This document shows positions 53,132-57,858 of a stretch of 64,000 nucleotides of DNA, piece after piece (position 1 is the first letter of the stretch; each line of letters opens with the position of its first letter). The DNA is taken from NCBI RefSeq assembly GCF_048403405.1, contig NZ_CP183129.1. One strand, 5' to 3'. A model generated the notes under the pieces. The model was not told where the DNA came from and did no database searches. It was given only the letters and a program-made list of their open reading frames with translations. The translations under genes were made by a program, and so were the position numbers. The stretch comes from Escherichia coli (GTDB taxonomy: Bacteria > Pseudomonadota > Gammaproteobacteria > Enterobacterales > Enterobacteriaceae).

Positions 53132-54325
53132 ATGACGGAACAAGAAAAAACCTCCGCCGTGGTTGAAGAGACCAGGGAGGCCGTGGACACCACGTCACAA
53201 CCTGTCGCAACAGAAAAAAAGAGTAAGAACAATACCGCATTGATTCTCAGCGCGGTGGCTATTGCTATTGCTCTGGCGGCGGGCGTCGGTTTGTATGGCT
53301 GGGGTAAACAACAGGCCGTCAATCAGACTGCCACCAGCGATGCCCTGGCTAATCAACTGACGGCACTGCAAAAAGCCCAGGAGAGCCAAAAAGCTGAGCT
53401 GGAAGGCATTATCAAGCAACAAGCTGTACAGCTTGAGCAGGCGAATCGTCAGCAAGAAACGCTGGCAAAACAGTTGGATGAAGTCCAACAAAAGGTCGCC
53501 ACCATTTCCGGCAGCGATGCTAAAACCTGGCTGCTGGCTCAGGCCGATTTTCTGGTGAAACTCGCAGGACGGAAGCTGTGGAGCGATCAAGACGTCACGA
53601 CCGCTGCAGCGTTGCTGAAAAGTGCAGATGCCAGCCTGGCGGATATGAATGACCCGAGTCTGATTACCGTTCGTCGGGCAATTACCGATGATATCGCCAG
53701 CCTTTCTGCGGTATCGCAGGTGGATTATGACGGCATCATCCTTAAGCTTAATCAGCTTTCAAATCAGGTAGATAACCTGCGTCTGGCCGATAATGACAGC
53801 GATGGTTCGCCGATGGATTCCGACGGTGAAGAGCTTTCCAGTTCCATCAGCGAATGGCGTATCAATCTACAAAAAAGCTGGCAGAATTTTATGGACAACT
53901 TCATTACGATTCGCCGTCGTGATGACACCGCCGTACCGCTGTTAGCGCCAAATCAGGATATCTATCTGCGCGAAAATATTCGCTCTCGCCTGCTGGTCGC
54001 AGCACAAGCTGTACCGCGTCACCAGCAAGAGACTTATCGCCAGGCGCTGGAGAACGTCTCCACCTGGGTACGTGCTTACTACGATACTGATGATGCCACC
54101 ACCAAAGCGTTCCTCGACGAGGTGGACCAGTTAAGCCAGCAAAATATCTCGATGGATCTTCCGGAAACCCTGCAAAGCCAGGCGATGCTGGAAAAACTGA
54201 TGCAGACTCGCGTGCGTAACCTGCTGGCACAACCGGCAGCGGGGACAACGGAAGCTAAACCTGCACCTGCACCTGCACCTGCACCGCAAGCTGATACTCC
54301 GGCAGCCGCGCCGCAAGGAGAATAA
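53132..54325 (+). CDS. hemX: HemX (uroporphyrinogen-III methyltransferase-like membrane protein)
   Basis: 397-aa ORF with N-terminal TM helix, coiled-coil-rich body and Pro/Ala-rich C-terminal tail. Confidence 0.9.
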
Positions 54326-54327
54326 CC

Positions 54328-55524
54328 ATGCTAAAAGTGTTATTGCTCTTTGTTTTGCTGATTGCGGGGATAGTGGTTGGCCCGATGATTGCCGGTCATC
54401 AGGGTTACGTGCTGATCCAGACCGACAACTACAATATCGAAACCAGCGTCACTGGCCTGGCGATTATTTTGATTCTGGCGATGGTAGTGCTGTTTGCCAT
54501 TGAGTGGCTACTGCGGCGGATCTTCCGCACAGGCGCACACACCCGTGGGTGGTTTGTCGGACGTAAGCGTCGCCGTGCCCGTAAGCAGACCGAGCAGGCG
54601 CTGCTGAAACTAGCGGAAGGCGATTATCAGCAAGTTGAAAAGCTGATGGCGAAAAATGCCGATCACGCTGAACAACCGGTGGTGAACTATCTACTGGCTG
54701 CCGAAGCCGCGCAACAACGTGGTGATGAAGCACGCGCCAACCAACATCTGGAACGTGCAGCGGAGCTGGCCGGCAACGACACCATTCCGGTAGAAATCAC
54801 CCGTGTACGTCTTCAACTGGCCCGTAATGAAAACCATGCTGCACGCCACGGCGTGGATAAGCTGCTGGAAGTTACGCCACGCCATCCGGAAGTATTACGT
54901 CTGGCGGAACAGGCGTATATCCGCACAGGTGCATGGAGTTCGCTGCTGGATATCATCCCATCAATGGCGAAAGCCCACGTTGGCGATGAAGAACATCGTG
55001 CAATGCTGGAACAACAGGCATGGATTGGCCTGATGGATCAGGCGCGCGCCGATGACGGTAGCGAAGGTTTGCGAAACTGGTGGAAAAACCAAAGCCGGAA
55101 AACGCGTCATCAGGTGGCGTTACAGGTGGCAATGGCGGAACATCTTATTGAATGTGACGATCATGATACTGCTCAGCAAATTATCATCGACGGCCTGAAA
55201 CGCCAGTATGATGATCGTCTGCTGCTGCCGATCCCGCGTCTGAAAACCAATAACCCGGAACAGCTGGAAAAAGTGCTACGCCAGCAAATCAAAAACGTCG
55301 GTGATCGCCCGCTGTTGTGGAGCACATTGGGTCAGTCACTGATGAAGCACGGTGAATGGCAGGAAGCATCGCTCGCCTTCCGCGCGGCGCTGAAACAACG
55401 TCCGGACGCCTACGATTACGCATGGCTCGCCGACGCGCTGGACAGACTGCACAAACCAGAAGAAGCTGCAGCGATGCGCCGCGACGGTTTGATGTTAACG
55501 TTGCAGAACAACCCGCCACAGTAG
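54328..55524 (+). CDS. hemY: HemY (TPR-containing membrane protein)
   Basis: 398-aa ORF with two N-terminal TM segments followed by TPR-like repeats; last gene of hemCDXY. Confidence 0.9.
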   Translation: MLKVLLLFVLLIAGIVVGPMIAGHQGYVLIQTDNYNIETSVTGLAIILILAMVVLFAIEWLLRRIFRTGAHTRGWFVGRKRRRARKQTEQALLKLAEGDYQQVEKLMAKNADHAEQPVVNYLLAAEAAQQRGDEARANQHLERAAELAGNDTIPVEITRVRLQLARNENHAARHGVDKLLEVTPRHPEVLRLAEQAYIRTGAWSSLLDIIPSMAKAHVGDEEHRAMLEQQAWIGLMDQARADDGSEGLRNWWKNQSRKTRHQVALQVAMAEHLIECDDHDTAQQIIIDGLKRQYDDRLLLPIPRLKTNNPEQLEKVLRQQIKNVGDRPLLWSTLGQSLMKHGEWQEASLAFRAALKQRPDAYDYAWLADALDRLHKPEEAAAMRRDGLMLTLQNNPPQ

Positions 55525-55777: not shown

Positions 55778-56202
55778 CTCGTTTATTATGCCACAGAGAA
55801 CCGGGAAATAACATCCCTTAACACTTTTTATGAGATAATTCTGTAATCCTCTTTGCTTCCTGAGTAATAACTTCCTGAGTGAATATTTCTCCTGCGCACG
55901 ATTCTACACATATATATAATGAATAATAAAAGTCATTCAATTAATAACATATATATTAATTGCCGTTAAAACTAAAAACAGCATCAATAATCAACGCGAT
56001 ATAACATCACCGCCTTACATATCACCTGCGCCAGAGGTAGGATTGAAAACGCTCTCCTGATTTTCCAATTCATTATCTGGATAAATAAATAATTTATTTT
56101 CATCACTATTATTTATGCAATCATCCTGTCAGGGAGAGGGATCTCAATTATCAATGCTTAATTACGTCAACATTTTGACGACATGAAACCGGAGCATTTT
56201 GC

Positions 56203-57858
56203 ATGGAATTTTCGTTTTCACCCAAACTTCTTGTTGTGGCTGTCGCCGCCGCTCTTCCACTCATGGCCAACGCAGCAGATACCCCGTCAACCGCCACCGC
56301 ACGCAAAGGCTTTGCCGGATACGATCACCCAAACCAGTATCTGGTTAAACCGGCGACCACTATTGCCGACAACATGATGCCGGTGATGCAGCATCCTGCA
56401 CAAGACAAAGAAACCCAGCAGAAGCTGGCAGAACTTGAGAAAAAAACCGGTAAGAAACCGAACGTGGTTGTTTTCTTGCTGGATGATGTGGGCTGGATGG
56501 ATGTTGGCTTTAACGGCGGCGGCGTGGCGGTGGGTAATCCTACACCAGATATCGACGCCGTTGCCAGCCAGGGGCTGATTTTAACTTCGGCGTATTCTCA
56601 ACCGAGTTCTTCCCCAACCCGCGCCACGATTCTTACCGGACAATACTCCATCCACCACGGCATTCTGATGCCGCCAATGTACGGGCAACCGGGCGGTCTG
56701 CAAGGGTTAACCACTCTGCCGCAGTTGCTGCACGATCAGGGCTACGTCACTCAGGCCATCGGGAAATGGCATATGGGGGAAAACAAAGAGTCGCAGCCGC
56801 AGAACGTTGGCTTTGATGATTTCCGCGGCTTTAACTCGGTATCCGATATGTATACCGAATGGCGTGATGTTCACGTCAACCCGGAAGTCGCCCTGAGCCC
56901 GGATCGTTCTGAATACATCCAAAAACTGCCGTTCAGCAAAGATGACGTTCATGCCGTGCGCGGCGGTGAACAGGAAGCCATTGCCGACATTACGCCGAAA
57001 TATATGGAAGACCTGGATCAACGCTGGATGGAATATGGCGTTAAGTTCCTCGACAAGATGGCGAAGAGCGATAAGCCTTTCTTCCTCTACTACGGCACTC
57101 GCGGCTGTCACTTCGATAACTACCCAAATGCGAAATATGCGGGTAGCTCTCCGGCGCGCACCTCTTACGGCGACTGCATGGTGGAGATGAACGATATCTT
57201 CGCCAATCTGTATAAAGCACTGGAGAAAAACGGTCAGCTTGATAACACGCTGATTGTGTTCACCTCTGATAACGGTCCGGAAGCCGAAGTTCCGCCACAC
57301 GGTCGCACGCCGTTCCGCGGTGCGAAAGGTTCTACATGGGAAGGCGGCGTTCGTGTGCCAACCTTCGTTTACTGGAAAGGCATGATCCAACCGCGTAAAT
57401 CTGACGGCATTGTCGATCTGGCGGATCTCTTCCCTACGGCGCTGGATCTGGCGGGGCATCCTGGGGCGAAAGTAGCGAATTTAGTACCGAAAACCACCTT
57501 TATCGATGGTGTGGACCAGACATCTTTCTTCCTGGGAACAAATGGTCAGTCTAACCGTAAGGCCGAGCACTACTTCCTCAACGGTAAACTTTCTGCTGTG
57601 CGTATGGATGAGTTCAAGTATCACGTCCTGATCCAGCAACCGTACGCGTATACCCAGAGCGGGTATCAGGGTGGATTCACCGGCACAGTAATGCAAACGG
57701 CGGGATCGTCGGTGTTTAACCTGTACACCGATCCGCAGGAAAGCGACTCCATCGGCGTGCGCCATATCCCAATGGGTGTACCGCTACAGACCGAAATGCA
57801 CGCGTATATGGAGATCCTGAAAAAATATCCACCACGCGCGCAGATTAAATCTGATTAA
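56203..57858 (+). CDS. aslA: Arylsulfatase-family protein AslA (periplasmic)
   Basis: 551-aa ORF with signal peptide ([26 protein letters not shown]) and sulfatase fold; the active-site motif reads [12 protein letters not shown] (Ser-type). Confidence 0.9.

Follow-up and report, generated by a model that had tools for sequence, protein, structure and literature searches.

How can a core gene of Escherichia coli accommodate a short tandem repeat in its final codons, and does the length of this repeat differ between strains? The question is raised by the hemX gene in the 64-kb stretch of E. coli DNA analysed here (the window), for which a preliminary description had reported four in-frame copies of ACCTGC followed by a degenerate copy, encoding a (Pro-Ala)n tract near the HemX C-terminus. 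Both the coordinates and the description are correct, as seen in the sequence and by Tandem Repeats Finder, which identified a perfect hexanucleotide array, (ACCTGC)x4.5, at positions 54259-54285 of the plus strand (unit ACCTGC, period 6, 4.5 copies, 100% matches, score 54). The letters at 54259-54288 are ACCTGC ACCTGC ACCTGC ACCTGC ACC GCA. Read in the hemX frame, the array is (CCT GCA)x4 at 54260-54283, corresponding to Pro377-Ala384, and AAA (CCT GCA)x4 CCG CAA encodes the peptide Lys376-(Pro-Ala)4-Pro385-Gln386, located 12 residues from the stop. The array is located in frame within the last 22 codons of the gene, and the complete 3' end of hemX is GAA GCT AAA (CCT GCA)x4 CCG CAA GCT GAT ACT CCG GCA GCC GCG CCG CAA GGA GAA TAA. 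Thus, the Pro-Ala tract is indeed encoded, with four Pro-Ala pairs read in frame. The degenerate closing unit, ACCGCA (54283-54288, plus strand; Pro385-Gln386), consists of the final A of a GCA codon followed by CCG and by the CA of a CAA codon (..A CCG CA.) and therefore contributes Pro-Gln and no further Pro-Ala.

An array of this length is not expected to arise by chance in DNA of this composition. The longest perfect period-6 array in the window measures 27 bp, compared to a mean of 13.9 bp and a maximum of 19 bp in 200 dinucleotide-preserving shuffles of the 64-kb window, and therefore lies far beyond chance, ruling out a chance repeat. With its head-to-tail copies of a short unit beyond chance, the hemX array is a microsatellite, or variable-number tandem repeat (VNTR), and no other perfect array of short period occurs in the 64 kb analysed. 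In the intergenic region between the end of hemY at 55524 and the start of an ORF encoding a 551-aa sulfatase-like protein at 56203, positions 55856-55885 contain a direct repeat of 15-16 bp that is imperfect (unit CTTCCTGAGTGAATAA, about 1.9 copies with 93% matches).

The gene carrying the array (53132-54325, plus strand, 397 aa, stop codon TAA at 54323-54325) was identified as hemX by its ORF, a match to Pfam family PF04375 (HemX; E = 3.9e-108, 361 bits vs. a cut-off of 25.9, residues 130-363), and RefSeq, which names the corresponding gene hemX in each of the E. coli genomes inspected, with hemY starting 2 nt later. The gene order hemD-hemX-hemY is also found in the window, where hemX is flanked by an upstream ORF of 246 aa and a downstream ORF of 398 aa, the latter being hemY according to the RefSeq naming in other E. 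coli genomes. Furthermore, the hemX genes of Citrobacter and Salmonella have an upstream neighbour with PF02602 (HEM4, HemD domain) and a downstream neighbour with PF07219 (HemY_N). The RefSeq product name for HemX is uroporphyrinogen-III C-methyltransferase. A Pfam search of HemX returned PF04375 and weak sub-threshold matches only, with no methyltransferase family among them, and the product name would seem to be a historical mislabel. HemX has been called poorly characterised (PMC2704936) and described as a distant homologue of Mic60 (bioRxiv 10.1101/2022.06.14.496148), and deletion of hemX, which is viable (Keio strain), lowers gentamicin sensitivity (PMC12282077).

The length of the array varies extensively in the species. 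A megablast search with a 181-bp query around the array found the hemX 3' locus in 5,425 of 5,426 complete E. coli genomes, and a second search with a 361-bp query again found it in 5,425 of 5,426. A match to the hemX 3' end is missing in one of the 5,426 genomes, two hemX 3' places occur in at least one E. coli genome, and one of 5,429 places is found on a plasmid. From each search, 60 records were taken at even ranking steps, yielding 59 + 60 genomes with the array (n = 119); one further sampled record, in which the array is deleted, was kept apart from these. Copy numbers of the 119 genomes were derived from the match spans (window = 4), and 12 loci were checked at the sequence level. In all 119 genomes, the span differs from that of the window by multiples of 6 bp, corresponding to alleles of 1-16 copies: allele 1 is present in 1 genome, allele 2 in 20, allele 3 in 2, allele 4 in 10, allele 5 in 22, allele 6 in 17, allele 7 in 11, alleles 8 and 9 in 9 each, allele 10 in 6, allele 11 in 5, allele 12 in 1, allele 13 in 2, allele 14 in 1, allele 15 in 2, and allele 16 in 1. 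The most common alleles are thus 5 (18%), 2 (17%), and 6 (14%), and allele 3 accounts for merely 1.7% of the 119 genomes, an uneven distribution that could reflect clone structure or selection. Simpson's diversity index (D) of the array alleles in these genomes is 0.89. The preliminary description had predicted length variation between strains and suggested a comparison of hemX alleles, where slippage would be contradicted by a copy number shared by all strains; the comparison instead bears out the prediction, with 1-16 copies in 6-bp steps.

At the sequence level, no interruption was seen in any of the 11 (ACCTGC)n arrays retrieved from other strains, which represent alleles 1, 2, 5-9, 11, 13, 15, and 16, with identical borders in all 11 (TAA|ACCTGC...ACC|G, including the 3' border formed by the closing unit) and an intact reading frame. 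Copy numbers read from the sequence include 2 in K-12 MC4100, 9 in an ST131 isolate, 11 in O104:H4 HUSEC2011, and 16 in one O157:H7 strain. Variation is also found within clones. O157:H7 is a young clone, and strains labelled O157:H7 carry 5, 6, 7, 8, 12, or 16 copies. With whole-unit copy differences between strains and constant flanks, the array is a VNTR also by comparison among genomes. A different rearrangement is seen in protein P0001 (485 aa), encoded on a contig of an ENA metagenome, which is a HemX with an 88-residue internal tandem duplication. The duplication junction lies right after the residues KPA at the array start, and the array of P0001 is interrupted (PAPAPAPTPAPAPAP). As it comes from a single contig, this duplication could be real or an assembly chimera.

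The array proved to be a known typing locus. Primer CVN014-R of the generic E. coli multilocus VNTR analysis (MLVA) scheme (GCAGCRGGGACAACGGAAGC) matches the window exactly at 54236-54255 on the plus strand, where 0 matches are expected by chance, and primer CVN014-F (TCCCCGCAATCAGCAAMACAAAGA) matches exactly at 54347-54370 on the minus strand, inside the start of hemY. Both primers, which are listed in Table 1 of PMC8143711 together with the offset formula (size-111)/6, match the window uniquely, one on each side of the array. The predicted amplicon (54236-54370) is 135 bp long, i.e. 111 + 4x6, corresponding to allele 4, and 111 + 6n also holds for every amplicon of the remaining fetched strains (117-207 bp). 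The exact primer matches and the fit to the offset formula identify the hemX array as the known MLVA locus CVN014, so that its detection here is a rediscovery and not a new finding. The primers of the other nine loci of the scheme have no match in the 64-kb window. The generic E. coli MLVA scheme (GECM-7/GECM-10) goes back to Lindstedt et al. 2007, as cited in PMC8143711, PMC5217547, and PMC3877011, and typing papers describe CVN014 as its most variable locus. The genome-derived D value agrees with this high-diversity ranking, which itself is taken from those papers. Published CVN014 alleles comprise 2-12 (PMC5217547) and up to 15 repeats (PMC3407997), and isolates of ST131 differing only at CVN014 were reported to have 2-11 repeats (PMC3407997). 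The allele spectrum of the complete genomes (1-16, with 2, 5, 6, 8, and 9 being common) mirrors the published one, and there is no difference between the hemX array and CVN014. Text searches of the literature found no paper connecting hemX with a VNTR; the link came through the primer sequences. Neither the location in hemX nor the coding of a (Pro-Ala)n tract is mentioned for CVN014 in the typing literature examined, so that its assignment to hemX is a minor contribution of this analysis.

The array is distinct from the VNTRs TR1-TR7 described by Noller for O157. The units of these loci are AAATAG, TGGCTC, TATCTT, TGCAAA, AAGGTG, an 18-mer, and GACCAC (PMC2246123), none of which is a rotation or complement of ACCTGC, and identity of the hemX array with any of the seven was therefore rejected. 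Nevertheless, the 6-bp VNTRs used in MLVA of O157:H7 (TR1-TR7, Vhec, O157-n) are likewise perfect arrays of a hexanucleotide, short in length and changing by one or several units at a time, and like them, the hemX array varies among O157:H7 genomes, in this case between 5 and 16 copies.

Intragenic tandem repeats are a classic substrate of phase variation, and repeats can be mis-assembled; the length differences might thus conceivably reflect phase-variable switching of HemX on and off, or else an assembly artefact. Both, however, are scarcely credible here. On/off switching is refuted by the 6-bp unit and the intact frame of the fetched loci: all length differences among the 119 genomes are multiples of 6, and since the unit equals two codons, the frame does not shift at any allele. 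In all 12 fetched loci, including that of strain NCTC11023, hemX is open through to its normal ...PQGE end, and there is thus no off state. An assembly artefact is excluded, as the arrays (9-99 bp) are shorter than sequencing reads and the variation has been observed independently in many laboratories by capillary sizing of PCR products. The contingency loci of other bacteria, such as those with tetranucleotide repeats in Haemophilus or pentanucleotide repeats (opa) in Neisseria, share their substrate and probably their process with the hemX array, namely slipped-strand mispairing in a perfect intragenic repeat. In contrast to the 6-bp unit of hemX, which is located at the extreme 3' end of the gene and leaves the ORF intact, the units of these loci are not multiples of three and result in on/off switching.

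We consider it very probable that the array is a slippage-driven and largely neutral microsatellite, the CVN014 locus, residing in a non-conserved and probably unstructured tail of hemX, and that it does not act as a switch. Slipped-strand mispairing is an established mechanism for short tandem repeats. Perfect arrays, whole-unit differences, and variation within clones together are its signature, making replication slippage the likely mutational process, although the sequence alone does not separate it from unequal recombination. During replication, nascent and template strands would misalign by whole 6-bp units, and each such step would add or remove one Pro-Ala pair. Other 6-bp VNTRs of O157:H7 change at 4e-5 to 1.8e-3 events per generation in passage experiments (PMC3777172), which may serve as an analogy for the hemX array. 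Weak hairpins may assist the process, as every unit contains the palindrome TGCA, from which imperfect hairpins with 4-bp stems separated by 2x2 mismatches are predicted. As single-stranded DNA, the 16-copy array has a predicted folding energy of -19.4 kcal/mol (z = -6.9) for the coding strand and -23.8 kcal/mol (z = -3.4) for the other strand, compared to only -3.2 kcal/mol (DNA parameters) for the 4.5-copy array of the window, which barely folds. The predicted imperfect hairpins in 16-copy arrays (L001) could thus favour slippage in long alleles, in line with the general loss of stability as arrays lengthen.

Why such changes would persist is suggested by the position of the array in HemX. 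The Ala/Pro/Thr-rich tail that hosts it (residues 367-397; 54230-54322, plus strand) was delimited by the Pfam match, an alignment of homologues, and an AlphaFold2 model. The PF04375 match ends at residue 363, before the array-bearing tail, and in a search of 1.8 billion cluster representatives, the alignments of most HemX homologues end near query residues 355-370. Among 51 aligned family representatives, what follows residue 363 is a stretch of 1-85 residues, unrelated in sequence and rich in Ala, Glu, Pro, Thr, and Ser. Hence, the tail has no sequence conservation across homologues. The AlphaFold2 model, built on the alignment of the 51 representatives (mean pLDDT 81), consists of a membrane helix, a helix of roughly 90 residues, and an all-helical domain. 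It predicts helices up to residue 366 and coil thereafter, with pLDDT values of ~95 in the domain and 82 at residues 361-370, followed by 62, 58, and 53, suggesting that the C-terminal tail is probably disordered. The single membrane helix (residues ~36-57) is directly preceded by a Lys-rich stretch in the N-terminal region, and following the positive-inside rule, the C-terminal domain and the tail are probably periplasmic. The HemX protein P0063 of Salmonella enterica serovar Berta (413 aa) has a 24-residue tandem duplication extending across the end of the membrane helix.

Changes in copy number would persist because the array lies past the folded domain, in a tail that is non-conserved and probably unstructured and in which length appears to be of little consequence. 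The array would thus represent a fast and largely neutral length polymorphism, useful for strain typing. A natural deletion further illustrates how dispensable the tract is. In E. coli NCTC11023 (NZ_LS483297.1, 4601378-4601519; L004), the array and the following PQADTPA have been lost by an in-frame deletion of 39 bp, indicating that E. coli can live without the Pro-Ala tract. The CVN014-R primer site of this strain contains a mismatch (GGGATAAC), and together with the deletion, this probably results in a null or odd CVN014 allele.

The proximity of the array to hemY could also point to a regulatory role, in which array length would alter mRNA structure or spacing near the hemY ribosome-binding site and thereby affect the translation of HemY or its coupling to hemX. 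The distance from the end of the array to the hemY ATG (54328) is 42 nt, and a Shine-Dalgarno-like motif, AAGGAG (54315-54320, plus strand), read from the sequence, is located within the last hemX codons (CAA GGA GAA), 7 nt upstream of this ATG; it presumably acts as the hemY ribosome-binding site. In addition, long arrays are predicted to self-pair via their TGCA palindromes (DNA parameters). However, the 29 nt between the array and AAGGAG are present in all 11 array-bearing strains fetched, so that the spacing between the hemX stop and the hemY start never changes, and during translation of hemX the array would be opened by the ribosomes. Together with the lack of any promoter-like site within 53900-54600, the constant spacing makes an effect on hemY very unlikely.

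The hemX 3' end of other Enterobacteriaceae provides a further perspective on the locus. Citrobacter gillenii (L014) has an E. coli-type hexamer (GCA CCT x4.5), and in C. sedlakii the site orthologous to the E. coli array (L013, 1380-1503; L016, 1380-1485) contains a 9-nt in-frame unit, CCTGCCGCA (CCT GCC GCA, Pro-Ala-Ala), in 1, 2, or 3 copies, giving HemX proteins of 394, 397, and 400 aa, respectively (P0016, P0009, P0024). This array is apparently a parallel VNTR that has not been described before. No repeat is found at the hemX site of Salmonella (L015). The hexamer of E. coli and C. gillenii and the 9-mer of C. sedlakii indicate that this site repeatedly hosts in-frame arrays. The last residues of HemX, APAAAPQGE, are conserved across Escherichia, Citrobacter, and Salmonella, and the codons CAA GGA GAA are also present in Citrobacter and Salmonella. 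Since AAGGAG is contained in its codons, the conservation of APAAAPQGE can be explained at least partly at the DNA level, and the motif probably accounts for the conservation of ...PQGE at the end of an otherwise variable tail. Alternatively, the conserved residues could be the end of a tail with a function in the protein, and the length of the preceding spacer would then matter.

The latter option leads to an adaptive reading of the array, according to which a stiff, extended (Pro-Ala)n spacer sets the periplasmic reach of the conserved HemX C-terminus and acts as a selected "tuning knob", a contingency locus with effects on envelope or respiratory phenotypes. A terminus conserved in three genera behind a variable spacer is consistent with this idea, as is the fact that arrays arose or persist at one site in several lineages (E. 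coli, C. gillenii, and C. sedlakii). The distant homology to Mic60 (bioRxiv 10.1101/2022.06.14.496148) and the lower gentamicin sensitivity of the deletion mutant (PMC12282077) might also be taken in its favour. By analogy, the hemX tract resembles the OmpA hinge and the proline-rich region of TonB, which are Pro-Ala- or Pro-rich extended periplasmic linkers: the composition is similar, and the location in the envelope is probably similar as well. These linkers, however, join two functional domains, whereas the hemX tract is followed by 12 residues only. Furthermore, many HemX homologues have tails of just 1-10 residues, the natural strain NCTC11023 lacks the array, and the hemY motif can account for the conserved last codons at the DNA level. 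Finally, alleles 1-16 coexist, and close clones differ widely, which resembles drift at a fast locus. Taken together, adaptive tuning of spacer length appears quite unlikely, and it is slightly less likely still that the (Pro-Ala)n tract is a selectable length regulator providing heritable, reversible variation in an envelope or respiration trait. If this were true, the traits affected through HemX, a Mic60-like protein of the inner membrane, might include membrane potential and aminoglycoside uptake, and the Citrobacter arrays would represent convergent selection for tunability.

For the slippage-driven, largely neutral microsatellite favoured here, the weight of the finding as a discovery is small, as CVN014 has been in use since 2007 as the most discriminating marker of its scheme. 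What is added is the exact placement of CVN014 in the last hemX codons as a (Pro-Ala)n tract, together with the spectrum of alleles in complete genomes (1-16 copies, D 0.89), which can be taken straight from assemblies. In addition, the unconserved tail beyond the folded domain offers a reason why such a fast repeat would be tolerated in a core gene. Should array length affect the function of HemX after all, the locus would provide a naturally occurring series of alleles of a poorly characterised protein.
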